Shown: positions 8,620 to 63,171 of the stretch, piece by piece
Position numbering within the stretch: position 1 is the first letter of the stretch
Layout of the letters: every line of letters starts with the position of its first letter
Assembly (NCBI GenBank): GCA_964475215.1
Contig: CAYYVT010000187.1
Coordinates: 3,506 to 67,505, forward strand
Direction: 5' to 3'
Length of the DNA stretch: 64,000 nucleotides
From: an uncultured Nitrososphaerales archaeon
GTDB taxonomy: Archaea; Thermoproteota; Nitrososphaeria; Conexivisphaerales; DTJL01
Program-made: the position numbers and the translations under genes
The notes under the pieces: model-generated
What the model was told of the DNA's origin: nothing
Database searches by the model: none
Seen by the model: the letters and a program-made list of their open reading frames with translations, nothing else

Positions 8620-10079
8620 CTTCGTATGTGTTCGATGGACGAGTAGTCTCTAAGCTCTATAGAGTGGTTTCCTCTGCTGTCGGTCCTAGGGACAGCACCG
8701 TATATGAACAGCCTAGCCCCTGGCAGAAGGCCACTTAGCACCCCGGAAAGGTTGCGCCAAGCGGTGAGCTTGCTTTCGCCAGTCTCATCTCCCACCAACA
8801 CTTCGCTAAGTGTGGTCGTCCTTCCGTCCCTCAGGACAATCTCCCTAGTAGATGGCTTGGCGAGTACGACGAGTTCGATTAGACCGGCCGAGTCCATGTT
8901 CGGAAGATCTTGAATCTTGAACTTGAATCCGTCCAGCTTATCCTTCGAACTGCTCAGGAGTTGAAGGTCAGCCTCCGTGAGACCCGGGACAAAGATTTCG
9001 TCCCCCTTAGTAGAATAATTGCTTAACCTGATCTGGTCGCCTGAGTCAATACTGTCGAAAAGTCGTGCCGATGTGTCCGCGGTCGCAAGCAGAAAGGTCC
9101 GTTTGCCCTTCCCTAGCAAGATAGACCTCCGCTGCCTTCCGCCGACGTCGTTCATGGGACCTACGGAGATGACTAGAAATGGTTCCTCTTCGTTCACAGA
9201 GCCCTGATCAGCCGCAGGAGAGGCTAACAGCTCAATGGTTGTGTCCTCGTTACCATGAAGCTCGCAGGTACCGTCTGGCTGTAACTTGGACTCGATGTTG
9301 ATAAGCCGGATTTCCATCCTAGGCTTAAGCTGTGACTCGTATTCGGGACGAGATGACCAAAGTACAAGCCGCATAGCCGGCTCGGAGGACGCCTTCTCAG
9401 ACAGCATGAGCTGGAGCACCTTGCCCTGCGACCCGTCCTGTCTCTGGAAGGATATGAGCCTAGGGTCGTTAACCACGAAACCCCTGACTACAAGGCCCCT
9501 TCTTGCGAACTTTATTTCGGACGACTTTAGGGTGATCGAATCTAGCTTCTTGAATCCGTAAGCATGAGAATCAAGCAACTCTATCTTCGTTTGGGGGTTG
9601 GAGTGGATTTCAAGCAGGTTATCCCGGCCAGTGCGCGTTGCGGCATTCGATATCCTAAGAGGTTCTCCAATCGAAATCGTGGCAAAGGAGGACTCTTTGG
9701 CTAGCGTATCCCAGAGCATGAGCTTCACGCTGATGCCATCGTCAAAAAGGAATACCGACCGATAGTTTCCGGTCGATCCGTCCTTTCTGTTGAAAGTTCT
9801 GGTGCCGGAGGCTGCCAAGAAATAGGCCTTGACGTTGATAGACACCATCCCGGGTCCTAGATCTTTTAGCGAATAATCGTTCAAGCTCATGTTGTTGAGG
9901 TCGATGTTCAGTTCGCTCGCAACTAGATAACTAGCTCCGGCGTCCGTCAGGAATCCGGAACCGACTTTCTTCTTCTTTTCTGCGATGAGGTCGAGAAGCT
10001 GCTCCTTGGTCAGGTCGCTCCGCTGTCTGATCATCTCGTCCAGAATCTTGTCGAGTTTGTCGTCAGGCAAGGGAGCCAA
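8616..10079 (-). CDS. replication protein A-like ssDNA-binding protein with about four OB folds
   Basis: TTG start. The N-terminal helical module (TKEQLLDLIAEKKKKVGSGFLTDAGASYLVASELNIDL) resembles archaeal RPA N-termini. It is followed by four repeats of the OB pattern (V...G.V...R.F.R.DG..G....L.DETG...L.W). No zinc finger seen. Confidence 0.6.
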   Translation of the reverse strand: MAPLPDDKLDKILDEMIRQRSDLTKEQLLDLIAEKKKKVGSGFLTDAGASYLVASELNIDLNNMSLNDYSLKDLGPGMVSINVKAYFLAASGTRTFNRKDGSTGNYRSVFLFDDGISVKLMLWDTLAKESSFATISIGEPLRISNAATRTGRDNLLEIHSNPQTKIELLDSHAYGFKKLDSITLKSSEIKFARRGLVVRGFVVNDPRLISFQRQDGSQGKVLQLMLSEKASSEPAMRLVLWSSRPEYESQLKPRMEIRLINIESKLQPDGTCELHGNEDTTIELLASPAADQGSVNEEEPFLVISVGPMNDVGGRQRRSILLGKGKRTFLLATADTSARLFDSIDSGDQIRLSNYSTKGDEIFVPGLTEADLQLLSSSKDKLDGFKFKIQDLPNMDSAGLIELVVLAKPSTREIVLRDGRTTTLSEVLVGDETGESKLTAWRNLSGVLSGLLPGARLFIYGAVPRTDSRGNHSIELRDYSSIEHIRS

Positions 10080-13582: not shown

Positions 13583-16500
13583 TCAAGTAAAATCTACAAT
13601 TGAGGTTTGTTTCTTATACTCGGAAAGTAGGCGAAGGTTTTCTAGGGCAAGTGTCACCTTGTCCTTGGTTGGTTGAGCGATGTGGTGGGTGTTAATCAGC
13701 TCGTTCGCCAGTAAGACATACTTTTCGACCGTGGAGAGGCTAACCGATGGGATGAGTTCCTTTCCACATGTTAGGCAGGTTCCTTTGAGAGGAGGTCGTC
13801 GATACACTTCGCCGCACCCTCTGCACCTGAATTCTTGAGTAGAATAGGCGTCAAGGGTGATAATGATCTCCTTAACGAGATAGTTATTGAGAAGCGAAGA
13901 GATTAAGCCATCTACGTCAACGGTCTGGATTTTAGTTGCAGTAGCGATTTGTCTACTCACTTTGTCGGGCATGGGCCCAGGGATAGAGTATGATGATCTG
14001 GGTTGCGAGGTGACCGTTGACGTTGACCAGTGGGTGTAAAGATAGTTCCTTCCAACTCTGTTGGCTTCTGAAGTAGCTTGCAGGATGCCTTCGAGTGAAT
14101 GTACAGAAGGCCTTTCGCTTGTCCTAAGGAAGAACTCTAGAGGGTACGAATCCAATCGATCGAAGAAGGATGGCTTTCTATGACTGAATGACGGAAGGAC
14201 GACGGGCTCAATCATCACCGGAGTGTCCAGTAACCCTGTGACGTGGTCAGGGCAAAGGCTTGGAGAGAAGTTCAACAGAACGTCCATGAGGAGGGTGATA
14301 GAATCAACATCCCCTCCACAGTCGCGATACTTGGCTGCATGCCAAAATGGATGGGCATAGCAGACCCGGGCATCGGTGAAGCCTATAATCCTGCCAACAA
14401 TACCGAGCGATGCCTCGGGAGAGATTCCAACTGCAAGGGCTCCGACGAGGTCTCTCTGGCTCTGGGCATCGTAGAAAGCTTTCACCTTGAAGAATCGTGT
14501 TAAGACATCGTCGAGATAGTTGGAAAGACGCTTGAGGTGGTCTCCGGAGTCTTGGGGAAGGATTATGTCTTGGGGCTTCAGTTCTACAATCTGGTCTTCC
14601 GATTCCAGAGGCTTTCCGAATTTGTCCGTCACATAGCCGAGTTCTTGCATCGTCTTCAGGTCCAAGTGAAACTGCAAAGGCTTGAAGTGTGTCAGGGGTG
14701 CATTGACTACATCGTATCTAACCGTTCCATCCTTGAAGCAGGTCAAGTTATGCCTTTGCCGGAGTATACCTTTCTCCAACCTTTCGGGTGTGCGAGAGCG
14801 GTTGCCGAGCTGGGATACCCCCTTGAGAGGAGGGTAGGGCTGTAGCCCAACCGTATCCGAGGCGGCACGAAGAAGATCTTGTGTATGAGGGACTACGTTA
14901 GTGTAAGGTAGTGTGTCGGCCTTACAATCAGGACATTGTTCGTTCATGCGTTCTCTCTTGCAAGAGGGGCAATAGTAAAGCTGCAGAGTCTTGGCCTCGC
15001 AAAACGGGCAACTTCCGTATGGAGAACTAGCTCCACAAGACCGACAGGACCTTATGTTTAGTTCGGTTACAGAAGGGATGTGATGTGATTGGAGGACATC
15101 CCGAGACTGAATTCCCTTAGTCCCCACAGGGAATAGCACATGAACAGGAGGTCTCATCTTGCGTTCATTGGAGATCTCGACCTTGCGCATTGCTACACCT
15201 ATGTATTGTGAGGACTTCCTCCTGATTTCAACGCCGGAAAGAAATCTGAGGAGATTAAGCGTATCAGAGTAAGATGTTCCGAGGGGGATTGGTTTGTCGG
15301 GAGTGAGTGTCAGATAAGTGGCTTTTGCGTCTTCGCCGTAGAGCTTGAGCAGAGGGCCTTGAACCTTGTGAGGTATATGAGCTAATTCTAGACAACGCTT
15401 GGCGTCGACGGAGTTGGTGATTGAGAGGGCTGCGGGCTCGGGCGGGTTTTCCTGAAAGTCTACAATGGCTTCGCGTAGAAAGAAGATGTCCTTTATCGTA
15501 AGGAGATCCCAGAAGAAAGAGTAACTAGGATGAAGCGGGACTTCCAGTATGTCAGAGAATTTCAGGGCCTCCGATAATGTAGGCTTTACGGTAAGGGAAT
15601 TCTCCAGCAAAAGCGTAAGTCTATCCAAATCAAGGGACGTCGATGTCGAGAGCTGTTGCAGGTTTAGATGTCTGTCTTCCATCGCCTTTCTGACGTCGGA
15701 AATCCACCATTCTTCGACATAACCCGAGGCCTCTAGGGGCTGGTTTGAGTGTAAGAACTCGCTTGGAGATGCAAGGACGTCTCCTAAATCGATGATTTTG
15801 TCGAGATGGTTCTTGCATTGTTCGGCCTCAAGGAGGTTATTGATGTTACGTACTTCTCCGTCCTGAAGGCGAACCATCGGAGGTCGCAGAGAGTCGACAA
15901 CGCCCGCGGTCCCGATACGGTTCGCGATGCTAATTTTGATTCTAGTGCCTGTGCTAAGGGGAGAATCGAGGAGCTCGAATACCGCGGGATGGAACCCAAA
16001 TGAACCGGAACCAGTGTTCTCCGCCCGTCCATACCTAAGTCGGAAGCTTCCGGGAGCATCCGGCAGAGAGAGGACAGGCTTGCCAGGCTTAGCATTTAGA
16101 ATGTAGGCGACTTCGCCCTTTGGCTCTTTGGACATGGGGTTGCTTTTGATTTTCGCGAGCCAATCCCATTCCGGAACTTGGAGAGCTTGAGCTAGCTCAA
16201 GCACTCTAGAGTGTTTACCTACAATCCCCTCGATTAGGATCTGCAGGGCTCCACCTCTTACTCTGTTGTCTTTGATTCGCTGAAGGTTACGATGTACTAC
16301 GACCTCGGAGTCTTCAGTACCCCTCCCGTCTATCTCCACCGGAATATTCTGGAGGACAAGGCGCAGGTCCTCCTCCGTTATCCGGAAAGTTGCGGCGTCG
16401 TGTTCTCGTTGATAGATTCCGATTTCTTCGATGAATCTGGATACTTCGTCGTCGCCGACCGAGTTCACGTGGTATTTCTCTAGACCGATCATGACTCGGA

Positions 16501-17038
16501 TTCTGTCGGCTATGAGAAGCAGGAATGCGCCTTCTATGGGAGTTAGGGTACTGCCAATTTGACCGAACAGAACGGCAGGGTAAGATGTTCCGTCACCGTT
16601 TTTCTTGATTACCACAGATGTGATGTCGCTGTAGGGGATCATGCTCACAGAAGATGTCACAACACTAAGACTAGCCTGGAGTGCGAGATTCATGATCTGC
16701 TCTTTGTTTAGAAAACCAAAACGACCTAATGCGATGTCTTCTGCCGACTTGAGGGCGAGCTGGGTGGCGGATAAGGAGGAGTCCATTTTTCTCAGGGATT
16801 CCGCGAATCCTTTGATTCCAGTTATCAGCTCAAGCCGGTCCGCCATGTCACAAACCTCTTGTGACTGCGGACTTGAGTCCAAGTCCACCCCTTCCTTCTT
16901 GGCTTCGGTGGCCGCAAATTTGGCTTTAGAGTAGTCTTCCGACAAACTGTCAAAGTAGGTTCGATCAAGAGAGCTGCTTTCTTCGTTAATCGCGTCGGTG
17001 ATTGATTTGGGTAAAGGGTGGACTTGGGAGAAGCTCAT
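13583..17038 (-). CDS. DNA polymerase II (PolD) large subunit DP2
   Basis: 1151 aa, with the characteristic PolD Cys clusters (CRSCGASSPYGSCPFCEAKTLQLYYCPSCKRERMNEQCPDC; C-terminal CRGCGEVYRRPPLKGTCLTCG) and overall DP2 colinearity. Confidence 0.9.
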   Translation of the reverse strand: MSFSQVHPLPKSITDAINEESSSLDRTYFDSLSEDYSKAKFAATEAKKEGVDLDSSPQSQEVCDMADRLELITGIKGFAESLRKMDSSLSATQLALKSAEDIALGRFGFLNKEQIMNLALQASLSVVTSSVSMIPYSDITSVVIKKNGDGTSYPAVLFGQIGSTLTPIEGAFLLLIADRIRVMIGLEKYHVNSVGDDEVSRFIEEIGIYQREHDAATFRITEEDLRLVLQNIPVEIDGRGTEDSEVVVHRNLQRIKDNRVRGGALQILIEGIVGKHSRVLELAQALQVPEWDWLAKIKSNPMSKEPKGEVAYILNAKPGKPVLSLPDAPGSFRLRYGRAENTGSGSFGFHPAVFELLDSPLSTGTRIKISIANRIGTAGVVDSLRPPMVRLQDGEVRNINNLLEAEQCKNHLDKIIDLGDVLASPSEFLHSNQPLEASGYVEEWWISDVRKAMEDRHLNLQQLSTSTSLDLDRLTLLLENSLTVKPTLSEALKFSDILEVPLHPSYSFFWDLLTIKDIFFLREAIVDFQENPPEPAALSITNSVDAKRCLELAHIPHKVQGPLLKLYGEDAKATYLTLTPDKPIPLGTSYSDTLNLLRFLSGVEIRRKSSQYIGVAMRKVEISNERKMRPPVHVLFPVGTKGIQSRDVLQSHHIPSVTELNIRSCRSCGASSPYGSCPFCEAKTLQLYYCPSCKRERMNEQCPDCKADTLPYTNVVPHTQDLLRAASDTVGLQPYPPLKGVSQLGNRSRTPERLEKGILRQRHNLTCFKDGTVRYDVVNAPLTHFKPLQFHLDLKTMQELGYVTDKFGKPLESEDQIVELKPQDIILPQDSGDHLKRLSNYLDDVLTRFFKVKAFYDAQSQRDLVGALAVGISPEASLGIVGRIIGFTDARVCYAHPFWHAAKYRDCGGDVDSITLLMDVLLNFSPSLCPDHVTGLLDTPVMIEPVVLPSFSHRKPSFFDRLDSYPLEFFLRTSERPSVHSLEGILQATSEANRVGRNYLYTHWSTSTVTSQPRSSYSIPGPMPDKVSRQIATATKIQTVDVDGLISSLLNNYLVKEIIITLDAYSTQEFRCRGCGEVYRRPPLKGTCLTCGKELIPSVSLSTVEKYVLLANELINTHHIAQPTKDKVTLALENLRLLSEYKKQTSIVDFT

Positions 17039-19251: not shown

Positions 19252-19692
19252 TTATCGATCTATGATCTTGCTGAATTGGATTCTTCTTTGTAAGTCCGAA
19301 CCTTGGGATTCAACCTCCGAAGGGGTAGGAAGACGGTAAATCCACTTTCTACCACGTTTGACTCTGCTTACTTCGCCCACATTGTTCATTCTTGATAGGT
19401 AGGTGCTAACGGCCGCGAGTTTCATCGGGTGGTGGTATCTGTTTTCAAAGGCCTCTTGGAGCTGGTCTGATGTGAATTTTTTGAATGTAAACTCCTCCGC
19501 TACGAAACGCCTTAACTGGCTGTATGTGGTGTCGTCTTGAAGCAGGTCGCTACTCTCGTTTCTCTTAGCTAGGAGGTCATACATGTCGATGATCCTTGAT
19601 ACCTTGTCCTTGGATATGTTACCTTCGAGCTTTATGGTGTAACGTTCACCGTCGGATCCTTCGAACTGAATCCGTACTGTGTTCCTTCCCAA
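19252..19692 (-). CDS. hypothetical winged-helix DNA-binding protein, origin-adjacent
   Basis: 146 aa, TTG start. C-terminal wH-like segment (MKLAAVSTYLSRMNNVGEVSRVKRGRKWIYRL). A TATA-like ATTATATG lies about 28 nt upstream on its strand. Confidence 0.55.
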   Translation of the reverse strand: MGRNTVRIQFEGSDGERYTIKLEGNISKDKVSRIIDMYDLLAKRNESSDLLQDDTTYSQLRRFVAEEFTFKKFTSDQLQEAFENRYHHPMKLAAVSTYLSRMNNVGEVSRVKRGRKWIYRLPTPSEVESQGSDLQRRIQFSKIIDR

Positions 19693-19862
19693 AGGAGTAC
19701 TATCGATGAGGGTTATCGCATATAATCGTTAACGGTGATTGAATGTTAACTTGTTGGTTAACGTTAGCTAGTTTGGCATGAAAGAGCCAGCCTCCTTGTG
19801 TCATATTCACTCGGCTTAACCAGGGCTGGCTGTGAATGCGTGGGCTTGCGTTTGTACAATGG

Positions 19863-19882
19863 TTCCAGTGGACGCATTGGGG
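19863..19882 (+). repeat. ORB-like element 1
   Basis: TTCCAGTGGACGCATTGGGG. Confidence 0.65.
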
Positions 19883-19922
19883 TGACGGGCTGGCATTAAC
19901 AAGCGTCAAGGTGTGGACAGAG

Positions 19923-19941
19923 CCCAGTGGAAACAAAGGGG
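19923..19941 (+). repeat. ORB-like element 2
   Basis: CCCAGTGGAAACAAAGGGG. Confidence 0.7.
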
Positions 19942-20040
19942 TCGGAATTGAGCTCCGATGAGCTTGGACGATGTCGTGAGTTAACGAGTCAGGTAGATCA
20001 GTCGAGAAGGTGGGTTAGCCTCCAGGGCCACCCGGGACCG

Positions 20041-20061
20041 ACCAGTGGAAACACTGTGGGG
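20041..20061 (+). repeat. ORB-like element 3
   Basis: ACCAGTGGAAACACTGTGGGG. Confidence 0.7.
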
Positions 20062-20211
20062 AATATAGTCGATTCTATTGGCTGGTCTCTGTCTACTTCT
20101 TCTAGCTTGCAGGTCATTCATGATTGGCATGGTCCTCTATCAAGGGAGCAAACCAGTTAGAAGCGATATAATTTTCCATCCGTCCATGCACTATATCTTA
20201 AGTTATATATT

Positions 20212-20237
20212 TTCCAGTGGAAATACTGGGGCGGGGG
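20212..20237 (+). repeat. ORB-like element 4 (overlaps the cdc6 promoter/5' end)
   Basis: TTCCAGTGGAAATACTGGGGCGGGGG. Confidence 0.7.
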
Positions 20238-20242
20238 CTCCA

Positions 20243-21445
20243 TTGTCCAGCCAGCCACCAGATTCCTTGAACGATATCTTCGAACGAGTCCTCACCGGGA
20301 AATCGTTATTCGCCAACAGAGACGCCCTTCGAAACGAGTTCATTCCAAGTCAAATTCACTACAGAGACGACCAGATCAAGGCCGTTGCACAAATACTCTC
20401 GCCTTCCCTCGCCGGCCACAAACCCTCGAACCTCCTAATCTACGGAAAGACCGGAACAGGCAAAACAGTCGTAACAAAATACGTTATCAACCGGCTAACC
20501 GATAAGGGAAAGACCCTTTCGGGTAGCCTCCGTACAGCTTACGTCAACGCCCGCATAGCGTCGACTGAATACCGCATACTGTCGGAACTGGCCGCCGACC
20601 TCGGGGTCAATCTTCCATTTACCGGGCTTTCACTGAGCGAAGCCTTCAACAGGATTGCTACCAAAATCAAGGAAAGTGCAGTCAAGGCCATCCTAGTCCT
20701 CGACGAAATCGATTTTCTAGTCAAGTCCTCCGGAGATAACCTTCTTTATGAATTCACAAGGGCCAACGAAGAATTCAACAATGAAGCGTTCATCACCCTT
20801 GTTGGAATATCAAACGATCTCAAGTTCAAGGAGTCGCTCGACCCGCGTGTGCTCAGCAGCCTCAACGAAGAAGAAATAGTCTTTCCACCATATACCGTCG
20901 ATGAGCTGAAGTCAATTCTACAAGAAAGAATCCAAGTAGCATTCGTTCCGGGTAAAGTTAACGATGCTGCTGTGAACTTGTGTGCAGGAATGGCTGCAGC
21001 CGAGCATGGAGACGCCAGGAGGGCCGTCGACCTGCTCCGTGTAGCCGGCGAATTAGCGGAAAGGGAAAACGCGGAATCAATCGGGGACTTCCATATAAGG
21101 GAGGCCTCCAAGAGCATCGAACGGGACCGAGTCCTAGAGGCCATTCAGTCTCTTCCCATTCACGGCAAGCTCACTCTCCTCGCCGTTTCATACTTCCAAG
21201 AAGCAGAGAACACAGGCCACGTCTATGCAAAGTATACAGATCTAGCAAAACGACTCGGCCTCGAACCTTTGACTCAGAGGAGAGTCAGCGGCCTTCTAAG
21301 TGAACTTGACCTGCTTGGCCTCGTCTCCGCTCCAGTAATCAGTAAGGGAAGAATGGGCAGATCGAAAAAGATTAAACTCGAGGTGCCCCAGCAGGCGATA
21401 ACAAACTCCTTCAAAGACGACGAGACGATGAAGACGCTGCTCTAG
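20243..21445 (+). CDS. cdc6: Orc1/Cdc6 replication initiator (AAA+ plus C-terminal winged helix)
   Basis: Walker A YGKTGTGKT, Walker B LVLDEID, and a C-terminal wH. The ORF is open from TTG 20078 and has ATG 20186. TTG 20243 is preferred because it gives the usual short N-terminus (MSSQPPDSLNDIFERV...) and leaves ORB3/4 and a TTATATAT box outside the CDS. Confidence 0.85.
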   Translation: MSSQPPDSLNDIFERVLTGKSLFANRDALRNEFIPSQIHYRDDQIKAVAQILSPSLAGHKPSNLLIYGKTGTGKTVVTKYVINRLTDKGKTLSGSLRTAYVNARIASTEYRILSELAADLGVNLPFTGLSLSEAFNRIATKIKESAVKAILVLDEIDFLVKSSGDNLLYEFTRANEEFNNEAFITLVGISNDLKFKESLDPRVLSSLNEEEIVFPPYTVDELKSILQERIQVAFVPGKVNDAAVNLCAGMAAAEHGDARRAVDLLRVAGELAERENAESIGDFHIREASKSIERDRVLEAIQSLPIHGKLTLLAVSYFQEAENTGHVYAKYTDLAKRLGLEPLTQRRVSGLLSELDLLGLVSAPVISKGRMGRSKKIKLEVPQQAITNSFKDDETMKTLL

Positions 21446-22957
21446 CTAAGCCCGCCACAAGACTTCGAACGTCGATAAATCCACTAGAGCTACCCGTCCT
21501 TGAATTCGCGACAGCGACTTCGTTCCATCGGTCCAAGAAGGGGTGGATACCATCAGAGTTCCTCTATAAACGTCTTCATCGGCGATGCCAACGTGACCAC
21601 AGTGGATGATATCCGGCACCCGCTCCATAATCAGCAAATCCCGCTTCTCCGGGGCCAAACTTATCAATCCTCCATAGGAAGGAGCAAGATGCCGGGCTTT
21701 CAGAAGCGCACGAATCCCAGACGTGGGTCGAGTCTCAGAAGCTGACTGCAACTGTTTGAAAACTTCGTCCAAGCTCTGCCCATGGTAAAGGAGGACGTTA
21801 ACCCCATGCATCTTAACCATCGATGGATTCCCAAGCATCGAAACGTTCTTCATTTCATACAACAGTTTAGCATATTTCCGAATGATGGCCGGCTGCGGCA
21901 GGGCCCCCCTCGTCGCATCCATTTCTCCTGGGACGACAAAAATGCGGACGTTACGCCGAATCCTGCTCAAATAGCCAGCTAACTCTCTATAGCAAGCCTC
22001 AACTCCACGCTCGTTCAACCAACTATCACGAGCCAAGGGATTCTCTATCAGGTCTCCGTTAAGCACAAAATAGGCAATCCTTGATACGATTTCCAGTTCC
22101 CCAAGATCTCCATTCATCCAATCTACCATCCTGCCGAAAGCCAACGCATCGAAATCTGGTGAACCCATGCGAAGATCTGAACAGAAAACGGCGTACACCT
22201 TCTGGCTGGAAGTATTCATAACCCTCTCGGGTACGTCAGGGTGATAGACATTCCTAGCGTAATATCCCCTCGGCAAGGATTCGACTTCAGCCAAAACGAA
22301 TTCATCGATTAACACTTCTTCGACCCTTCGAATAGCGTCATCAGTACACATCAATCGAAGGTATCCTGTGTCGTCCTCTAAGGTCAACGACATGTAACCT
22401 CCGGACGTCTTCTTAGACACAACGAGTCCCACTACCTTAGCAAGGACCTTCTTCCCAGACACCGGAGTCTTGATTGCATTCAACTTCTCTATTTGAAAGA
22501 AGTCCGGCCGATTTCGCATCAACGAAGACATCCGCTCAAGCCTATCACGGAAGAGAAAAACATACCCGGACGCGTCGATCGTTGGATTGATTTGGTTGGT
22601 TGGATCGAAGAGGACATCAAAAGCTGGTGCGACCGTCTCCGCTAGCCCCGGCTCGGTGGCGGGGCGAACGAATGGTTTGACGTCTCTTAATCTGACGACC
22701 AACAACTTCCCTTTTTGCCTAGGCTCAGACCGAATTATCTGTTCAAGAATCCTTAGAACCAGCTCCGGTTCTCCTTCCTGCTCCAATAGCCGCCGGACGG
22801 CTTCCGGCTCGACTTGGTACCCCATTTCCAACATCTTCCTTATTACGAATACTTCATCCTCATTCCTTGCCGCCGGCAAGCTAATGTCACCTTTACTCGA
22901 GGAGTGTCCTATTTTACGATTATATGCAAGTACATCTTCAACGAAAGCGGTTGTCAT
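21446..22957 (-). CDS. DNA polymerase II (PolD) small subunit DP1 (Mre11-like phosphoesterase/exonuclease)
   Basis: 503 aa. N-terminal helical domain, OB-like middle, and a C-terminal calcineurin-like phosphoesterase (VFCSDLRMGS...VLNGDL...VVPGEMD...YHGQS...HCGHV). Confidence 0.85.
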   Translation of the reverse strand: MTTAFVEDVLAYNRKIGHSSSKGDISLPAARNEDEVFVIRKMLEMGYQVEPEAVRRLLEQEGEPELVLRILEQIIRSEPRQKGKLLVVRLRDVKPFVRPATEPGLAETVAPAFDVLFDPTNQINPTIDASGYVFLFRDRLERMSSLMRNRPDFFQIEKLNAIKTPVSGKKVLAKVVGLVVSKKTSGGYMSLTLEDDTGYLRLMCTDDAIRRVEEVLIDEFVLAEVESLPRGYYARNVYHPDVPERVMNTSSQKVYAVFCSDLRMGSPDFDALAFGRMVDWMNGDLGELEIVSRIAYFVLNGDLIENPLARDSWLNERGVEACYRELAGYLSRIRRNVRIFVVPGEMDATRGALPQPAIIRKYAKLLYEMKNVSMLGNPSMVKMHGVNVLLYHGQSLDEVFKQLQSASETRPTSGIRALLKARHLAPSYGGLISLAPEKRDLLIMERVPDIIHCGHVGIADEDVYRGTLMVSTPSWTDGTKSLSRIQGRVALVDLSTFEVLWRA

Positions 22958-38540: not shown

Positions 38541-38605
38541 CCTCTTCCGCAAACACTTATCTTCATGCTGCATCTGAGCAGCCGCAAGAGTGCTTCACTC
38601 CGTTG

Positions 38606-38681
38606 GGGGCCGTGGGCTAGCCTGGTCTACGCTACCAGCCTTGGGCGCTGGTGATCGGCGGTTCAAATCCGCCCGGCCCCA
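38606..38681 (+). tRNA. tRNA-Pro(UGG), intronless
   Basis: GGGGCCG/CGGCCCC acceptor, anticodon arm CCAGC CUUGGGC GCUGG, T arm GGCGG UUCAAAU CCGCC, discriminator A. No encoded CCA. Confidence 0.88.
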
Positions 38682-39424
38682 CTTCCTTTCTTCGGAAATA
38701 GAACTTCTGATGCCCTCCCTCTTGCGACCCTGTGTAACTCTAGATCCATCATCTCGAAATCATATCGATTAATGTCAAGTCGGTTAAGGAACGGAGCAAT
38801 GGTCATCGGAGGGCCTGGTTGGTAGCCAGCTCGAGAAGCATACCGGTTGAAATGTGGGAGGAACACAATCTCTCTTGGTCGCCCTCTTTTCCTATTCATG
38901 AGCTTCAACCAAACAGGTGCCCAGCCGCCGTCAAGCATAAGTTGGGGGTGTAGATGACCGGAGACAACACCATCGTATGATTCAATCGATTGCGACAGCC
39001 TAGGCAGGGAATGACCGTGGATGAAGGCGACCCGATCTAGTTCGAGCCCCTCCTTCCCAATTACTCTGACCCTAGGATCCATCACCTCCTCCACTCCATA
39101 ATCATGGTTGCCTTTCATAATCCACACTTCGAACGTCTTAACAAGCTCTTCAGTCATGGCCCGCAGGGCCTTCTTCTCGTATGGGCTGGGCTCAAAGAGC
39201 CCGTGTTTGATATCTCCAAGCACTATAAGGTTATTTGCTCCCGTTTCGCTGCTGGCAGTGGTCAGGCGAGCGCAATCCTCTAATGCTTCTTCTTCCGGGA
39301 GCGGCCTCCTAATGCCCAACCTATCGGTCAGGCCTAGGTGGACGTCGCCAATCACTAGGAAAAGCCTGCCGTCGTCGGCGAAGGCACTCAGAATCGCATC
39401 TCCCTTCAGAGGTTTCAGTTTCAA
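38663..39424 (-). CDS. calcineurin-like metallophosphoesterase
   Basis: Motifs VIGDVHLG, VLGDIKHG, KGNHD, IHGHS, SGHLHP. Its last 19 nt overlap tRNA-Pro on the opposite strand. Confidence 0.8.
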   Translation of the reverse strand: MKLKPLKGDAILSAFADDGRLFLVIGDVHLGLTDRLGIRRPLPEEEALEDCARLTTASSETGANNLIVLGDIKHGLFEPSPYEKKALRAMTEELVKTFEVWIMKGNHDYGVEEVMDPRVRVIGKEGLELDRVAFIHGHSLPRLSQSIESYDGVVSGHLHPQLMLDGGWAPVWLKLMNRKRGRPREIVFLPHFNRYASRAGYQPGPPMTIAPFLNRLDINRYDFEMMDLELHRVARGRASEVLFPKKGSGAGRI

Positions 39425-39950: not shown

Positions 39951-40487
39951 TCATCTCCGCCTGAGCCAACCGTCGTAACGATCATCGTCCGGGCCGCAGT
40001 ATATTACGGCCGGTTCTGGGTCGAGGTCGTTGCCCGTAAAGCTGTCCTTTCTACTCATGATGGCCAGCTCTTCGGCCCCGATCTGTTCGAAATGGACACC
40101 GTCGTCCAGCCATATCCTGTAGCCTCGAATCTCCTTCACCTTGCCTCCTGTTTCAGGGTCGTATTGATCGGTGAAGCTCCTTAAGACCATCGCCATGACC
40201 TTATCTTGCTCCAGAATGCTCACGAGGCGAATCGGAAACAGTTTCGTGTGTTCAGCTCTGGTTCCAAAGGACCAGCTTAGTGGTGTTTTCTTAACGTTCC
40301 AAGACGCGGGGCCGTAGGCCTCAGAATATAACGTGATGACTCCTCTGCTCCGCACATGCCCGCAAACCTCAACAAGGAGTTGCTGAACTCCACGTGGCTC
40401 GGATGACTCGTCTCCAAGCCCTGATGAACCATTCTCCATCGATTTCACCAGACCTCCAAACATCTCTCCCCTTATCAGCACCCACAT
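39951..40487 (-). CDS. hypothetical protein
   Basis: 178-aa ATG ORF with no recognisable motif. It lies just outside the left repeat of the islet. Confidence 0.5.
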   Translation of the reverse strand: MWVLIRGEMFGGLVKSMENGSSGLGDESSEPRGVQQLLVEVCGHVRSRGVITLYSEAYGPASWNVKKTPLSWSFGTRAEHTKLFPIRLVSILEQDKVMAMVLRSFTDQYDPETGGKVKEIRGYRIWLDDGVHFEQIGAEELAIMSRKDSFTGNDLDPEPAVIYCGPDDDRYDGWLRRR

Positions 40488-40540
40488 ATCTAGAAATGGT
40501 TAGAGAGATTACTCACTTTGTTACGACGCCAACGTGAATT

Positions 40541-40557
40541 AGGAGCCTCGGAGGGGC
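40541..40557 (+). repeat. 17-bp direct repeat, distal copy (displaced tRNA-Thr 3'-end fragment, att-like)
   Basis: AGGAGCCTCGGAGGGGC, identical to 43972-43988. Confidence 0.7.
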
Positions 40558-40957
40558 CTACAACTTAGGGTAGAAAGACACCGAAATCGTCTCAGATTCA
40601 AGCTTGGGGGGACACCTACCCAAAAGAACCCATTCCTCCATGCCAAGGTGCGGACTGGGGGGGTGTCCACACTCAATCGAGCATGAGTCCGGCGCTCAAT
40701 ACGACGGAAAAGGTCGTCTGGCCAAGGAATCCGACTTCTGGCTCAATCACTGGTGAAGGCATGCTAACTTGTTCTCTCCCCAGCCGCCTCTTAGATCAAG
40801 CTAGACGTGATTTTGGGGGGCCTTTCAATAGCTTAATCTCTTCATGCTCTGGAGGACAATTTGATAATCGCGTAGCCAAACGGTGGAGGACTGCGATGCA
40901 AAATGAGTCGTCCTGCCCGATGCAGGCCGACTTGTACATCTCTCGGAGGAACGCTAG

Positions 40958-41659
40958 TCATTTGCCTCGTTGAATGATTAATGATGTTTTGCCGTCGGAG
41001 GTGTTCTTCGCGGAGAGGAGCCGGTGTCCCAGGAGGCGCGCGAGCGAAGGGAGGTCCTCCTTTGCCGCAGGGTCCCGGGTGGTGACCTCGAGCAAGCTAC
41101 CGACTGGAACACCCTCAATCTGATGACGGAACTCTTCCGGGAGTCCACTTGAGCATCCGAGGTCCCCCGCGTCGAAGAAACGCACGTCTTTGATTAGTTC
41201 TCGTGCCTCCGGACGATGCCCAGAGCAGAGCAGGTCCATCGAAACTATGTGCCCTTCGTAGAGATCGCAATAGGCATCCTGCTCGATCGTTTCTGACTCG
41301 CCGTCTGAGTATCGCTCTTTGAAGCGATACCTGATGTGGAGGCGATCACCGACGCGGTAGACGTTCTTCTCGAGGACCTGAATGCTTTCTGCTTCAGCGA
41401 ACCAGGAGGTGAAACGAGCTGCGACGGCCGATGGCCCATCTTGCTCCTGATATCCCTTGGGAACGAGGGCCCGCAGCCTTATCTCCGGATGGAAGCATGC
41501 CTTAAGTCTCTCCGGATTGCGGTCCGACAGAGCGACTATAAAGTCCTCCCCTGTGGCTTCCCCTACACCCATTGTCAAGGTTGGCCGGGTTCCCGGCTTG
41601 TCTTTCCCTGAAGATACTGGCAAACGGCACCACTCTCCTTCTTTGCTTTTCTCAGGCAA
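40958..41659 (-). CDS. NTF2/SnoaL-like domain fused to a TusA/SirA-like sulfur-carrier domain
   Basis: The C-terminal roughly 75 aa match the TusA fold pattern (FDAGDLGCSSGLPEEFRHQIEGVPVGSLLEVTTRDPAAKEDLPSLARLLGHRLL) with the Cys retained but no CPxP. The N-terminal roughly 130 aa look like an NTF2-like cone. Confidence 0.5.
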   Translation of the reverse strand: MPEKSKEGEWCRLPVSSGKDKPGTRPTLTMGVGEATGEDFIVALSDRNPERLKACFHPEIRLRALVPKGYQEQDGPSAVAARFTSWFAEAESIQVLEKNVYRVGDRLHIRYRFKERYSDGESETIEQDAYCDLYEGHIVSMDLLCSGHRPEARELIKDVRFFDAGDLGCSSGLPEEFRHQIEGVPVGSLLEVTTRDPAAKEDLPSLARLLGHRLLSAKNTSDGKTSLIIQRGK

Positions 41660-42023
41660 AGCTGGTGGTCGTCGCTCCCATGGCTATCTCTTCGACGACC
41701 TTGGCGGCTCCCACGATGGTCGCGCCGTTGGCGAGCTGTGCGTCGGTGATACCTCTAGGCTTTGCGCAGGCCCCGCAGAGCCACACCTTTCCGCCCTTGG
41801 AGACGAAGTCGGAGTAGATCTTGGAGAGAGAATCGAGCCCCTTTGACGCGATGCCGTCCGTGCCTCCTTTGGTCCCCAGCCAGACGCCTTCGATTGTCAA
41901 AAAGACGATGGCCTCCTGGCCAGCGGCCGCTGCGACGTTGCCTGCAACGAATGGCAGGGAGGCACGCTCGGGGTCCTCCTTCCCATAAGTGCCGTTGAAG
42001 ATGAGCTTGGTTGGCAAACTCAA
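41652..42023 (-). CDS. DsrE/DsrF-like sulfur-relay family protein
   Basis: 123 aa: LIFNGTYGKEDPERASLPFVAGNVAAAAGQEAIVFLTIEGV...GGKVWLCGACAKPRGI. Overlaps the downstream TusA-fusion gene by 8 nt. Confidence 0.6.
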   Translation of the reverse strand: MSLPTKLIFNGTYGKEDPERASLPFVAGNVAAAAGQEAIVFLTIEGVWLGTKGGTDGIASKGLDSLSKIYSDFVSKGGKVWLCGACAKPRGITDAQLANGATIVGAAKVVEEIAMGATTTSFA

Positions 42024-42181
42024 TCAGGCACTCCGTACCGGAATTGCGTCCAGAGCTATTCTGCTCATAGCCGCCTGAATCATTCTGGGAATGATATAAC
42101 TAGGGCGGGAGGGCCGCGCCGGAAATCCACAATCGGCGGCACCTGAGGAGCTTATATCGAACGGCCTGCGGATATCTCACG

Positions 42182-43129
42182 TTGGACTCCACTGACATTC
42201 GCATCTTCTGCGAGCTGGCGTTCAGGGACCTTGGATACGTTGAGTTCGAAGAGAGGCATCCCAGCGCGGCCAGCTTGGGGAAGAAGCTCGGCCTTGACGA
42301 GAAGACAGTGCGGGTCCGAGTGAAGCGTATGGAGGATTCGGGCTTCATCAAGTACTACCAGGCAATGCCCAATCTCTCCCTGTTCGGGATGCGCGTGGTG
42401 TCTGTATTCAGGTTCGAGGCGTTGAATCTCTCGACCAAGAACGCACTCATCAACCACCTTCACGAAGTGCCCAAGCTCGTCGAGTTCTCCGACTACCTTG
42501 GGCCTTTTGTGACGGGCAGCATCGCAGGTTCGACGCGGGAGGATGCCAGGAGCGGGGCGGACTACCTGGCATCGAGGTACGAGATGGGGATATCAGTGCT
42601 CGGTAGTCGGGCGATTGAGGAACCGACCGCCGGAATCGACAATCTGGACTGGCAGCTCATCAAGTCTCTGAGGTACGACGCGCGGTCTAACGACAGCAGC
42701 CTTGCGCAGCGCCTCTCGGTCACGCAGCGCATGGTGGGCTACCGAGTCTCGAGGTTGCTGCGATCTGGAGCCCTCAGCACCAAGGCTGTTATCGACCCTA
42801 GGAAGCAGGCGGGCCTCGTCTTCTTCGAGCTCGAGCTCGCCATTGACCCAGAGAAGAGGGGAGCGATTTCGAGCTGGCTGGCCGAGAAGTATGGCGAGAG
42901 CCTCTGGAGCCTGTACAGCCCTACCGCCGACATGGTCGTGGCAAGCCTGTTCGGGTTCACCATCGCCGAGCCTGAAGAGGTGGCCATCCAAGCGCTGAAG
43001 CTCGATGGGGTTAAACGTTGCTTGCTGTACATCCTCAAGGAAGTCATCGAACCCAAACGTCCGAACTGGATTGATGGGCTCATAGAATCGAAGCTTCGGC
43101 TAAGAGGCAAAGGGAAAGCCCCCGACTAG
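42182..43129 (+). CDS. tandem Lrp/AsnC-type winged-HTH transcriptional regulator
   Basis: Two HTH_AsnC-like modules (DSTDIRIFCEL...LGKKLGLDEKTVRVRVKRMEDSGFIKYY and LDWQLIKSLRYDARSNDSSLAQRLSVTQRMVGYRVSRLLRSGAL). Divergent from the DsrE/TusA pair. Confidence 0.65.
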   Translation: MDSTDIRIFCELAFRDLGYVEFEERHPSAASLGKKLGLDEKTVRVRVKRMEDSGFIKYYQAMPNLSLFGMRVVSVFRFEALNLSTKNALINHLHEVPKLVEFSDYLGPFVTGSIAGSTREDARSGADYLASRYEMGISVLGSRAIEEPTAGIDNLDWQLIKSLRYDARSNDSSLAQRLSVTQRMVGYRVSRLLRSGALSTKAVIDPRKQAGLVFFELELAIDPEKRGAISSWLAEKYGESLWSLYSPTADMVVASLFGFTIAEPEEVAIQALKLDGVKRCLLYILKEVIEPKRPNWIDGLIESKLRLRGKGKAPD

Positions 43130-43144
43130 GCGAGGAAGCCCGCC

Positions 43145-43300
43145 TTAGAATTCCTTGATATGAGTCATGAGCTCTTCTGGCGTCATGACCGTTTCCGGAT
43201 GAACCTCTTTCATGTGCATAATCGCATGCTTCTTCACGTCTTCGATCCCCTGAGGAGAGACTATCGTCCACCCGCAAGGGCATGTCCCTATGGCACCCAT
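43145..43300 (-). CDS. DUF1059-like small metal-binding protein
   Basis: 51-aa ORF absent from the track: MGAIGTCPCGWTIVSPQGIEDVKKHAIMHMKEVHPETVMTPEELMTHIKEF. The listed 43080..43310 ORF is in another frame and looks spurious. Confidence 0.5.
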   Translation of the reverse strand: MGAIGTCPCGWTIVSPQGIEDVKKHAIMHMKEVHPETVMTPEELMTHIKEF

Positions 43301-43444
43301 TCGGGTTCACTCTCTTTGCCGAGTATTTATATCAAGAGGCGAATCATCATTTCTTCGTTCAGGACCCAGCTCTTGCCGCCGTCCAATGACTCTCCAAATG
43401 CCACCTGAAGGAGGAGGCCGCGGTGTTCGAGAAGACCCACCACA

Positions 43445-43921
43445 TCAATAAGCCCTGATCTGGCTATCTCCTTTCACGGCAAAGTTCGATTTCCTTTCTT
43501 CATCCACGGTCCTGTCCATCAATCTTACGGGGCCGTCCAACACCACACCGCACCCGCTTCTTGCTGGTGTACGACTAACAGCCCCGAGACACCTAACGGT
43601 TCCGTACTTGGTCACAACTTCATGCATAATCCGTACAAGGGCGCGAAGGCGGAGGAGATTCTCCTTAGGCAGGGGGCCCTGGAGGAGTTCGGTGGTATAG
43701 GCAAGGATAGGGCGACATCCTTGGCTGCCAAGATCGACATACGGACTACAGCGCAAGCCACTGCTCGTGATATCGTTGGGGCACATCAGAAGGAAGTCCG
43801 CCGTCGACGAGTGGAGGCCAATGAATCGGCTGTAGGAAGTGAAGAAAGCGTAGGGCTTCCCACCGCTGTAGAATACATGATTGTTGCGTACCTCGAGCGA
43901 GTACTTGGCAACATCGTGCAT
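43445..43921 (-). CDS. hypothetical protein (next to the tRNA-proximal repeat)
   Basis: 158-aa ATG ORF with no recognisable motif and no tyrosine-recombinase R..HxxR..Y pattern. Confidence 0.4.
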   Translation of the reverse strand: MHDVAKYSLEVRNNHVFYSGGKPYAFFTSYSRFIGLHSSTADFLLMCPNDITSSGLRCSPYVDLGSQGCRPILAYTTELLQGPLPKENLLRLRALVRIMHEVVTKYGTVRCLGAVSRTPARSGCGVVLDGPVRLMDRTVDEERKSNFAVKGDSQIRAY

Positions 43922-43971
43922 AGATAATACGATATCCCTTAATATGATGTACAGAAATTACAATAATTTGC

Positions 43972-43988
43972 AGGAGCCTCGGAGGGGC
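43972..43988 (+). repeat. 17-bp direct repeat, tRNA-proximal copy (att-like)
   Basis: AGGAGCCTCGGAGGGGC. Its reverse complement GCCCCTCCGAGGCTCCT equals tRNA nt 60-73 plus 3 nt of trailer. Confidence 0.7.
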
Positions 43989-44049
43989 TTCGCTCCCCTG
44001 ACCCACAGCTTACAAGGCTGTTGCTCTAACTAGGCTGAGCTACCGAGGC
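43975..44049 (-). tRNA. tRNA-Thr(UGU) with atypical T-loop (possibly impaired)
   Basis: GCCUCGG UA GCUC AGCCUAGUUA GAGC A ACAGC CUUGUAA GCUGU GGGUC AGGGG AGCGAAG CCCCU CCGAGGC U. A perfect cloverleaf except that the T-loop begins AG instead of UU (positions 54 and 55). Confidence 0.7.
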
Positions 44050-44158: not shown

Positions 44159-45052
44159 ATGTTTCTTGTGCCAGGGTCCGGAAATAAACCTCTGGGACTC
44201 GAGATTGCAAAAGCCCTGACCTGTCCCGTAATCGACTTCGAATCTAGGAAGTTCCCCGACGGCGAAAGATATCTGAGGTTCGTCGACGATTTGCCGCATG
44301 ATACTGCCGTAATCACACAATCACTATACAAGAATCCCGATGAACTCATGATCGAATATCTCTTCCTAGCCAAGACCGCGTTGGACTTGGGCGCAAAGGA
44401 CATCGTCGGAGTCTTCCCATATATGGCTTATCTGAGGCAGGACAACCGCTTCAAATCAGGGGAAGCTGTAAGCGCTCACATCGTCAGCAGCATCATCGAA
44501 GCCGCTCCAACTTCAGCCGTATTAACGTTGGACAGTCATCTCCATAGAATTCACAATCTTGACGGGTTATTCGGTGTTCCTGCCGTCAACCTTTCTGCCA
44601 TCCCCTCGTTAGCAGAAAGGTTAGCCTCCGATTGCGTTCTTAGGGATCCCGTCGTAGTAGCTCCGGATGGCGAGGCGGCCCAGTGGGCAGATTTGGCGGC
44701 GCCTATACTCGGCGCAGATTCGGTGGTGATGCAGAAGGTTAGGCGCGGGGACACATCTGTAGAGATCGACCTCGGGCGCGTAGCCCCTAACGGCCGCGAC
44801 ATCGTGCTTGTTGATGATATAATCAGCACGGGAGGGACGATTGCTGAGGTGGCCCAGCGGTTGAAGGGCAAGGGAGCTAATCACATATATGCTTTAATCA
44901 CTCATGGCCTCTTTGTCGAGGGGGCATACGAAAGGGTCGTCAGAGCGGGTGTAGAACACTTGATAACCTCTGACTCCGTGCCGAACCGCTTCGGCAAGGT
45001 GAGCGTTTCACCGGTGTTCGCTACGGCCCTCAAAAACCTCGTACTTGCATAG
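44159..45052 (+). CDS. prs: ribose-phosphate pyrophosphokinase (PRPP synthetase)
   Basis: RKFPDGERYLRF near the N-terminus and the PRPP-binding loop VLVDDIISTGGTI. Confidence 0.88.
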   Translation: MFLVPGSGNKPLGLEIAKALTCPVIDFESRKFPDGERYLRFVDDLPHDTAVITQSLYKNPDELMIEYLFLAKTALDLGAKDIVGVFPYMAYLRQDNRFKSGEAVSAHIVSSIIEAAPTSAVLTLDSHLHRIHNLDGLFGVPAVNLSAIPSLAERLASDCVLRDPVVVAPDGEAAQWADLAAPILGADSVVMQKVRRGDTSVEIDLGRVAPNGRDIVLVDDIISTGGTIAEVAQRLKGKGANHIYALITHGLFVEGAYERVVRAGVEHLITSDSVPNRFGKVSVSPVFATALKNLVLA

Positions 45053-61590: not shown

Positions 61591-63171
61591 TTACCGGTGA
61601 ACCATGCTCACGGTCATCCAGTCGAGCTTGGATCTGTTGGCCCAGCTGAACTTCCTCTGCATCGTCTTTGGGTACAAGGCCTGCCAATTGAAGCCCACGT
61701 GGTCGGCCCACGCCTTGTACACCCTTGGATCGATATAGTTCTTGAGAGATGTATTCAGGTTGTAATCTCTAGTCTTCCTGGCTATCTCCAAGGACAACTC
61801 CGCCTTGCGAAGGCGTCTCTCGGATGCCTCTGCCTGCTTGTCCGTCCCTGGTCGGCCAATCTTCAGCTCTCTGACCCTTTCCTCCTTCCTCCTAAGGCTT
61901 TCATCCCAGCTCTTGGGCGGGGTCCTTTTGTGGTTACACAGCACCGCGGCTTGAAGGTTGGCCATCTTCGCGAGATAGAGGTCAAGCTCGAGGTCGTCTT
62001 CCTCTGCCTTACCCTCGACCGATGACAGGTAGTCTCTGACGACGTTAGTCGCATGATAGGTCCTGAAAACCTTAGCCGTCAGGCCGCGAACGATGCCCCC
62101 CAAATATGAGTTGACCTTCGACGACGTCACTCCATCAAACACGAGCTCCTCGGGCTTCTTTCCCGTCAGGAACTCCTCGAAGTTCGCAATTACCCGTGGC
62201 TTAACATCTCGGAGAACCTTCAGCCATCTTACACTATCCTTGCCCAAGAAGTCAAACAAGATGTCTCCGTCCTTTATGGTCACGTGCTCTACCCTTAGCG
62301 TTGTGGCGCCGACCGTGTCCGCTTCGTCTTCATCCTTCTCGTCACCCACCCTCATACACAATCGATCTATCAGATAGCAGACTGTGGCAACCTTTCGTGT
62401 TTGCTTGTCGCGACTGGCTAGACCCATTTCTATCCTCTTCCGAACGCGACTTATAGTCTGTTCAAGCTTGAGTGCCTTGTCGTACTTGGACCTGTTCTTC
62501 TCTTGGGCCAGGAAGCTGCTTTCATGAGGCCAAACGTACTTGACCTTCCCTGACAAGCCGTCCACCCAAGAGGCTAGCCACATGCAAGAAGGCTCGTGGA
62601 CTATCTTTCCCCAGTTGCCGGGAGGCGCTTTGGCAGTTCGATCTAGGTTAAGCGTAATATCCCGCTCTTCAATTCTCGGCTTCCATCTCCCTCTCATGGG
62701 ATGGCTGCCCCTGCCCTGGAAGATACCAGGAGGCTCGACCACCCAATTCTGAATCTCGACTCTCTTGCCGTCAATCCGGGCGTAGCCGTAGTTCTCCTTT
62801 AACGCCTCCTTTGCCTTCTTTCGCTCAGATGCCAGCCTTCTCTTCTCCGCTTTGCCAAGCGTTTCCCTCTGTTTCTTTTCGGAGTCGACTTGATTGTTGA
62901 ATTCCATAAAATCGAGGTCGTTTAGGGAGGCTGACCTGTGTTCAGCCGGCAGTTCTCTGGAGAAATCCTTCCAGAAGTTGCTGACGTATACGGGGTCACT
63001 GACGTATGCCGTATCCTTCTTCTTGGCCCATGAGTAGGCCATTTCCTCAGCCAGAGGGCTCAATGAGAAGAATTCACCCTTGAACCTCAGCCTTAGGTTT
63101 CGTGGCTCGTATGGAGGGGTAAAGACCACGCCGTTATGACTGAGACTGTGCCAATAGCCCGCCTTGGGCAT
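61591..63171 (-). CDS. DNA topoisomerase IB (eukaryote/poxvirus type)
   Basis: 526 aa. N-terminal WHSLSHNGVVFPPPYEP, core KVFRTYHATN, and a C-terminal active-site context NTSLKNYIDPRVY (S-x-x-N-Y-I-D-P-R). Confidence 0.88.
   Translation of the reverse strand: MPKAGYWHSLSHNGVVFTPPYEPRNLRLRFKGEFFSLSPLAEEMAYSWAKKKDTAYVSDPVYVSNFWKDFSRELPAEHRSASLNDLDFMEFNNQVDSEKKQRETLGKAEKRRLASERKKAKEALKENYGYARIDGKRVEIQNWVVEPPGIFQGRGSHPMRGRWKPRIEERDITLNLDRTAKAPPGNWGKIVHEPSCMWLASWVDGLSGKVKYVWPHESSFLAQEKNRSKYDKALKLEQTISRVRKRIEMGLASRDKQTRKVATVCYLIDRLCMRVGDEKDEDEADTVGATTLRVEHVTIKDGDILFDFLGKDSVRWLKVLRDVKPRVIANFEEFLTGKKPEELVFDGVTSSKVNSYLGGIVRGLTAKVFRTYHATNVVRDYLSSVEGKAEEDDLELDLYLAKMANLQAAVLCNHKRTPPKSWDESLRRKEERVRELKIGRPGTDKQAEASERRLRKAELSLEIARKTRDYNLNTSLKNYIDPRVYKAWADHVGFNWQALYPKTMQRKFSWANRSKLDWMTVSMVHR

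Follow-up and report, generated by a model that had tools for sequence, protein, structure and literature searches.

Integrated genetic elements of thaumarchaea range from 2.6 to 98 kb and have been defined by their integrase gene; their attachment (att) sites have a median length of 17 bp, and 57% of the elements are integrated into tRNA genes, always at the 3′ end except in one case (PMC6563490). Catalogues of integrated elements in archaea start from integrase genes and miss, by design, islets that have none. Such an islet is found in the DNA of an uncultured Nitrososphaerales archaeon of the Conexivisphaerales (assembly GCA_964475215.1, contig CAYYVT010000187.1, positions 3,506 to 67,505), a stretch of 64,000 nucleotides that is referred to here as the window. 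It occupies positions 40558-43971 (3,414 bp), next to the 3′ end of a tRNA-Thr(UGU) gene. With good confidence, it is a small, site-specifically integrated element resembling the cis-mobilizable elements (CIMEs), which is non-autonomous today because it encodes no recombinase, the enzyme having been either provided in trans or lost. As a tRNA-integrated, integrase-less islet of a soil archaeon, it is of a clean but fairly ordinary kind.

Boundaries of the islet and empty sites in relatives

The 17-mer AGGAGCCTCGGAGGGGC is present, without mismatch and on the + strand in both cases, at 40541-40557 and at 43972-43988, as a first-pass annotation made from the letters of the window had pointed out. 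The pair is the longest direct repeat bracketing the 40541-43988 region. No third copy occurs in the window when up to two mismatches are allowed (0.02 expected), and the search for copies did not reveal the dispersed repeat that the annotation had named as an argument against its own interpretation. The target of the integration is the tRNA-Thr(UGU) gene (43973-44049, − strand; detected by ARAGORN and scoring 57 bits with the Rfam tRNA model), which has its attB in the 3′ end and is intact after the insertion. The tRNA-proximal copy of the att core (43972-43988) corresponds to tRNA nucleotides 60-73 plus CCT, the first three nucleotides of the trailer. Read on the strand of the tRNA, it consists of G60, CCCCT (3′ side of the T-stem), CCGAGGC (3′ acceptor strand), the discriminator T, and CCT. 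The distal copy (40541-40557) lies downstream of the tRNA and in its orientation, so that the earlier description of the repeat agrees with ARAGORN and with the reading of the strands.

Assemblies of the same organism were obtained by exact-protein look-ups with both flanking genes, and more distant relatives were retrieved via the ribose-phosphate pyrophosphokinase gene (prs; 44159-45052, + strand; Pfam), which marks the right flank (contigs and loci are numbered L001 onward). The islet is carried by five assemblies (L001-L004, L008; identity to the window about 99.8-99.95%), in four of them in full. Two short contigs, which come from other samples and independent assemblies and are 96-97% identical to the window, display the site without it (L006, ENA ERZ27251359; L007, JGI 3300033977). 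In blastn, their positions 1-625 match window positions 44596-43972, and the sequence from position 609 onward matches the window from 40557 downward; the overlap of the two segments is precisely the 17-mer. The alignment gives the order tRNA-Thr, one core, and then the window's distal trailer and the flank of the gene at 39951-40487, and it identifies the truncated 146-aa gene of these contigs as prs. Accordingly, the sequence beyond the distal core in the window continues as the tRNA trailer of L006/L007, that is, as the original host trailer. L006/L007 are the attB allele in a sister strain.

The gene at 39951-40487 (− strand) encodes a conserved 178-aa hypothetical protein and marks the left flank, since it follows tRNA-Thr directly in the relatives with an empty site (tblastn/blastn synteny in L009, L021, L035, L044, and L006). 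Four further lineages are empty, with the orthologue of this gene following tRNA-Thr within 50-126 nt (prs identity 81% for L009, 78% for L021, 78% for L044/45, and 77% for L035/36). Because the empty sites have a single core and collinear flanks, 40558-43971 is an insertion of 3,414 bp whose 17-bp core has been duplicated (attL/attR) and which has its boundary at the tRNA terminus. The first-pass annotation had called the repeat an attL/attR footprint and had proposed a comparison with relatives in which the tRNA joins the flank of the 39951-40487 gene directly; L006/L007 have precisely this junction, and together with the four other lineages they support this interpretation. The alternative that the repeat arose by chance in an ordinary variable intergenic stretch could appeal to the 0.1-0.2 random 17-mer pairs that we calculate for 64 kb, a value in line with the roughly 0.2 estimated earlier. 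The repeat, however, ends on a tRNA terminus and coincides to the nucleotide with the boundaries set independently by the empty-site contigs, and the comparison with L006/L007 effectively refutes this explanation, whose probability is negligible.

The tRNA-Thr gene is unusual in itself. Its T-loop is non-canonical, AGCGAAG instead of TTCGAAT (A54, G55), and its D-loop lacks the GG normally found there (AGCCTAGTTA); the window's tRNAs for Leu, Pro, and Ala are canonical. The sequence of the gene is identical in the window, L009, L010, L020, and L021, and, over the aligned stretch, in L006/L007; in L044 one base is different. Since the odd sequence thus recurs in relatives whose proteins differ by 20-35%, a co-varying tertiary interaction between D-loop and T-loop is suggested. 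In most relatives, the gene encodes the CCA (GGCTCCA; L009, L010, L021, and L046). The window has GGCTCCT, as do the empty-site strain L006/7, L020, and L025, and for this reason the CCT is native to the window lineage and not introduced by the element.

Cargo of the islet and other occupants of the tRNA end

The central part of the islet is a cassette of four genes. The first one (40958-41572, − strand) encodes a protein with SnoaL_2 and TusA domains (Pfam, 1.1e-6 and 3.6e-8), which is 204 aa long as called in L001-L005, the open reading frame (ORF) extending to 41659. It is followed by the gene of a DsrE-family sulfur-transfer protein of 123 aa (41652-42023, − strand; Pfam DsrE 5e-13) and, divergently from it, by that of a regulator of 315 aa with two AsnC/Lrp-type helix-turn-helix domains (42182-43129, + strand; HTH_24 and HTH_AsnC-type in Pfam, in two stretches). 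The last gene (43145-43300, − strand) encodes a DUF1059-like protein of 51 aa, a "small metal-binding protein" by its JGI cluster name, with a Pfam match (DUF1059, E 0.0024) below the gathering cut-off; in other loci it always adjoins the regulator. Together, the four genes make up a cassette of sulfur trafficking and its regulator.

The cassette differs from its surroundings in composition. The core at 40958-43300 has a GC content of 0.578 against 0.520 for the window (z 3.5) and ranks third among 617 overlapping stretches of 2.3 kb, the top one (0.579) starting at 40601 and overlapping it. It is also an outlier in tetranucleotide usage (rank 3 of 309), and GC at third codon positions (GC3) is 0.76 in the DsrE gene and 0.77 in the regulator gene, in comparison with 0.55-0.68 in neighbouring genes. 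The GC-rich core noted in the first reading of the window is therefore real, and of the four hand counts given for it and its surroundings three are reproduced (40/60, 39/60, and 27/60), the fourth being 32/60 and not 33. Composition statistics, which that reading had asked for, deviate in both GC and tetranucleotides; all the tests that it had named as able to refute its interpretation were run, and all of them favour it. Only the cassette deviates; its composition is foreign and close to that of GC-richer relatives within the Conexivisphaerales, the hosts of the closest cassettes having GC contents of 0.59-0.60.

The regulator has 541 homologues, the best outside the species being 76-77% identical, and the same four genes are found in at least six chromosomal neighbourhoods in the Conexivisphaerales and other Nitrososphaerota (L013-15, L016, L017-19, L022, L023, and L024), often beside an OsmC gene. 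At the nucleotide level, the cassette of the window is 69-76% identical to those in other contexts, and the homology stops exactly at window positions 40963 and 43300. No tRNA was found near the cassette in the five loci scanned elsewhere, and no significant repeat flanks it in other loci. Its neighbourhood differs in every lineage examined (L013, L016, L017, L022, L023, and L024), and the DsrE and 51-aa proteins are at least 90% identical across orders. As a cassette without flanking repeats in such varied neighbourhoods, it has therefore been relocated also by something besides the tRNA route. In a collection of 15 billion proteins, prs has a variant of 96-97% identity and the cassette proteins have none, and thus the cassette is probably missing entirely from the empty-site strain. 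The GC-rich core is a conserved cassette of chromosomal type, a cargo acquired together with the islet and not the backbone of a mobile element.

The cassette is bordered by two arms (400 and 671 nt, about 1.1 kb), which match nothing outside this species. The left arm (40558-40957, GC 0.525) is devoid of conserved ORFs, contains three TGGGGGG runs, and has no similarity to other loci. The inverted pair GGACACC/GGTGTCC with its preceding G-runs, which had been noticed near this end of the islet (40610-40616 and 40662-40668), is present; the hairpin it could form does not stand out from shuffled sequence (z −0.29). The right arm (43301-43971, GC 0.519) contains two overlapping ORFs, of 101 aa (43622-43927, + strand) and 158 aa (43445-43921, − strand), both with homologues only in the same species. 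In AlphaFold2 models from the single sequence, the 101-aa ORF reaches a predicted local distance difference test (pLDDT) score of 69.6, with three helices, and the 158-aa ORF a score of 31.4; by these models, the former is the more credible gene. Neither model has a recognizable fold of a class relevant to recombination. Rfam detects in the islet only the tRNA and a sub-threshold match to ctRNA (23.8 bits against a cut-off of 50).

Other relatives have different DNA at the end of tRNA-Thr. In L010 (prs 77% identical), an insert of 3.36 kb separates the tRNA from a pseudogenised 178-aa gene, in which a W codon has become a stop. Relative to the empty L021, this insert spans 6449-9804 with a 13-nt overlap; it contains ThiF (frameshifted), ThiS, and ThiF, and its GC content is 0.55 as compared with 0.50-0.52 in the flanks. 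The insert has a short core repeat; its distal border reads CGAGGCTC[C]ATC, and before it stands a diverged stem-loop similar to a tRNA T-arm or tRNA 3′ half. The second insert, 1.43 kb long (8380-9809 in L025), is shared by ten contigs from different samples (L025-L034, 76% identical). It carries twelve direct and three inverted TGGGAGGTT motifs, which are iteron-like, and one ORF of 66 aa, and it differs between samples by indels of 20-42 nt; about three quarters of the 178-aa gene are deleted. This insert may represent the origin region of a plasmid or virus that has been lost. The arms of the islet have no similarity to either insert, and no integrase is encoded by these two occupants or by the islet. 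As it has taken up different integrase-less DNA in two other relatives, the 3′ end of tRNA-Thr is a recurrent hotspot.

In a more distant relative (prs 66% identical), two contigs end 8-9 nt past the tRNA-Thr 3′ end (L046 1-10, L047 1-9). Counting L048 (position 1), three independent assemblies of this relative end at or within the tRNA-Thr gene, which may reflect strain heterogeneity or assembly branching downstream of the tRNA.

The occupants and the cassette also bear on the possibility that the 3.4 kb are ancestral and have been lost repeatedly in the relatives by deletion between the 17-bp repeats. Such a deletion leaves one core, exactly as in L006/L007. At least five independent precise losses (L006/7, L009, L021, L035, and L044) and replacements in L010 and L025 would be needed, however, the composition of the cassette is foreign, the cassette sits elsewhere in other genomes, and the repeat would still stem from an earlier integration. 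Ancestry followed by loss is very improbable.

Proposed integration mechanism and possible sources of the recombinase

Four features agree with site-specific integration: the repeat, the tRNA terminus, and the insertion boundary coincide exactly, the empty allele has a single core, the tRNA is reconstituted, and the site has been reused. We infer a circular intermediate, which would have carried an attP with a 17-bp core identical to the 3′ end of tRNA-Thr(UGU). Site-specific recombination between this attP and the attB of the chromosome, which lies inside the tRNA gene, would have followed, presumably by the chemistry typical of tyrosine integrases, so that an intact tRNA would have been regenerated and the displaced 17-bp tRNA end left as a direct repeat on the far side (attL/attR).

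A Campbell-type insertion of circular or concatemeric DNA containing the 17-bp tRNA end would dispense with the enzyme: a single crossover in the shared segment yields the same direct-repeat product, no recombinase was found, and some archaea recombine over very short homologies. A tRNA 3′ end would, however, have to be present in the foreign DNA by coincidence. This tRNA end is also used by two or more other, unrelated inserts, and thaumarchaeal att sites typically are such 17-bp stretches at the 3′ end of a tRNA, all of which makes a crossover through short homology highly unlikely.

The absence of a recombinase from the islet, as proposed in the first-pass annotation, is borne out by several searches. 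Pfam detects no recombinase domain in the islet ORFs. Remnants, for which a hidden Markov model search in six frames had been suggested, were sought in the arms outside the cassette, and the six-frame translations of both arms are blank in Pfam (E<=10) and PHROGs (E<=1). The ORFs that cross the repeats are short, with 45 aa (40539-40676, − strand), 86 aa (43746-44006, − strand), and 50 aa (43881-44033, + strand), and the arm-side parts of these frames give no Pfam signal. When the ends are joined as a circle, they gain four codons on the minus strand or form an ORF of about 75 aa on the plus strand. A split integrase of the SSV (Sulfolobus spindle-shaped virus) type is thus ruled out, in agreement with the earlier reading: the frames through the repeats have 45-86 codons and remain short when circle-joined.

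A transposon, insertion sequence, or casposon does not fit, as no inverted repeat among the 25 longest pairs listed pairs the ends of the islet and no transposase domain was detected; nor is the repeat the target-site duplication of a transposon, the "duplication" being 17 bp of tRNA sequence.

Several observations weigh against an integrated element. No replication gene or other hallmark of a mobile element was found in the islet, and Pfam detects no integrase or mobile-element hallmark in 20 of the largest ORFs of the window outside it. The arms have a host-like GC content (0.52), and the reconstructed attP has no arm-type repeats beyond chance. Neither a helper element nor a free attP form was found in the viral contigs of IMG/VR, where the 17-mer and its 16-mer have only chance matches, in bacterial phages or high-GC contigs (L012, L037-L043). 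As all five assemblies of the islet lineage carry the islet, nothing points to excision at present. In addition, the divergence between the occupied and the empty allele is a mosaic. The 178-aa gene differs at 5 of 537 nt (99.1% identical, all changes synonymous), prs at 22 of 438 nt, and the 53-nt spacer beside the distal core (40488-40540; L006 626-676) at about 10 of 53 nt (around 81% identity). Owing to this mosaic, the islet may have entered the strain of the window by homologous exchange with a strain already bearing it and not by fresh integration.

The same viral contigs contain no match to the core-arm junction patterns of either arm and no relative of the regulator protein.

For an integrated element, the recombinase may have come from two sources. 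It may have been supplied in trans, by a helper element or a resident integrase targeting the same core, a case that includes an islet left behind after excision of the helper, as in CIMEs; we consider this to have a chance only a little short of even. Alternatively, a cryptic element encoding its own integrase may have inserted itself, and the integrase gene of about 1 kb may later have been deleted cleanly, with cargo, cores, and arms remaining. This second scenario, which shares the integration step with the preferred reading and differs from supply in trans only in the source of the enzyme, is possible but rather doubtful. Integrase genes are commonly located next to the tRNA, which is the position of the right arm, with its 671 nt, and the insert of the L025 group has clearly suffered deletions at the same site, including most of the 178-aa gene. 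Cryptic integrated elements as small as 2.6 kb are known in thaumarchaea, always with an integrase (PMC6563490). Against decay, the profile searches of both arms are blank, none of the three occupants (window, L010, and L025) retains a trace of an integrase, and polymorphism between strains about 96% identical leaves little time to erase every trace. For the lack of integrase traces in all three occupants and the polymorphism between 96-97% identical strains, supply in trans is slightly favoured over clean loss; the data decide for neither.

A broader reading of the locus is that the 3′ end of tRNA-Thr(UGU) is a chromosomal capture site, into which a recombinase encoded elsewhere would insert integrase-less cassettes of about 3.4 kb, equipped with no more than a short att-like core. 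The two sulfur-carrier cargoes (TusA/DsrE in the window and ThiF/ThiS in L010) and the iteron-bearing insert of L025, taken as the remnant of a helper, would then belong to an archaeal system similar to integrons or satellites. We regard this as unlikely.

The preferred reading, integration of a small element that is non-autonomous today, makes the islet a clean example, resolved to the nucleotide, of genes gained through site-specific integration in the barely studied, non-ammonia-oxidising Nitrososphaerota (Conexivisphaerales), with occupied and empty alleles both present among strains about 96-97% identical. The sharing of one tRNA end by three different integrase-less occupants suggests that, in this clade, recombinases commonly act in trans or are rapidly lost.

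The neighbourhood of the islet is core chromosome, with genes for PolD subunits, Cdc6/Orc1, SRP54, and topoisomerases, and with ribosomal genes. The spacer at 19690-20080, upstream of Cdc6/Orc1 (20078-21445), contains repeated CCAGTGGAAAC boxes that resemble origin recognition boxes, the maximum of the cumulative GC skew is at 20237, and the region is flanked on both sides by PolD subunit genes (13583-17038 and 21446-22957); the spacer is likely a replication origin. At 61591-63171 (− strand), a eukaryotic-type topoisomerase IB is encoded (Topoisom_I_N, Topoisom_I, and Topo_C_assoc). This enzyme is characteristic of Nitrososphaerota and fits the placement derived from related metagenome-assembled genomes. 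A permuted transfer-messenger RNA call of ARAGORN ("tmRNA*", 38589-39094), which overlaps tRNA-Pro and a metallophosphoesterase gene, is almost certainly a false positive, the organism being an archaeon.

Relation to known integrated elements

The islet has the features of tRNA-integrated islets, namely a repeat of the tRNA end with an intact tRNA, an empty site in relatives, and a deviating composition, the latter in the cassette only; an integrase or recombinase encoded by the element itself is not among its genes. With bacterial tRNA-linked islands and islets, it has in common the tRNA 3′-end target, the direct repeat, the deviating GC content, the accessory cargo, and the presence or absence according to strain. 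Compared with typical bacterial islands, it is much smaller, is without an integrase, and resides in an archaeal host.

Elements with the SSV-type "suicidal" integrase, found in Sulfolobales and Thermococcales, are likewise archaeal, located in tRNA genes, and flanked by tRNA-derived direct repeats (PMC7253208, PMC8371274). In these elements, attP lies inside int, which is split by integration into int(N) and int(C) halves, one at each end, whereas the frames at the ends of the islet have 45-86 codons and no integrase signal.

The cryptic integrated elements (CIEs) of thaumarchaea (Krupovic et al., 2019; PMC6563490) come from the same phylum, and the islet resembles them in its use of the 3′ part of a tRNA gene, its 17-bp att, and its size near the small end of their range. 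Winged-helix regulators are part of the cargo in both, and the site of CIEs, like that of the islet, has been verified against an empty relative. CIEs differ in having the integrase by which they are defined, while the islet has no integrase, replication, or other mobile-element genes, and its cargo, unlike theirs, is a cassette found on chromosomes elsewhere in the order.

Streptococcal CIMEs (PMC5704250) retain attL and attR and lack the genes for integration and transfer, and the islet is alike in both respects. They are bacterial, derive from integrative and conjugative or integrative and mobilizable elements, and have helpers that were demonstrated experimentally, in contrast to the islet, for which no helper, tandem accretion, or mobilization has been observed. 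At tRNA 3′ ends, tandem arrays containing CIMEs have been described, and the CIME model explains how an element may be left behind, or moved, by a helper with the same att (PMC5704250). Should the islet prove to be mobilized in trans, it would represent the archaeal equivalent of CIMEs or satellites of bacteria and a route by which metabolic cassettes pass between genomes.

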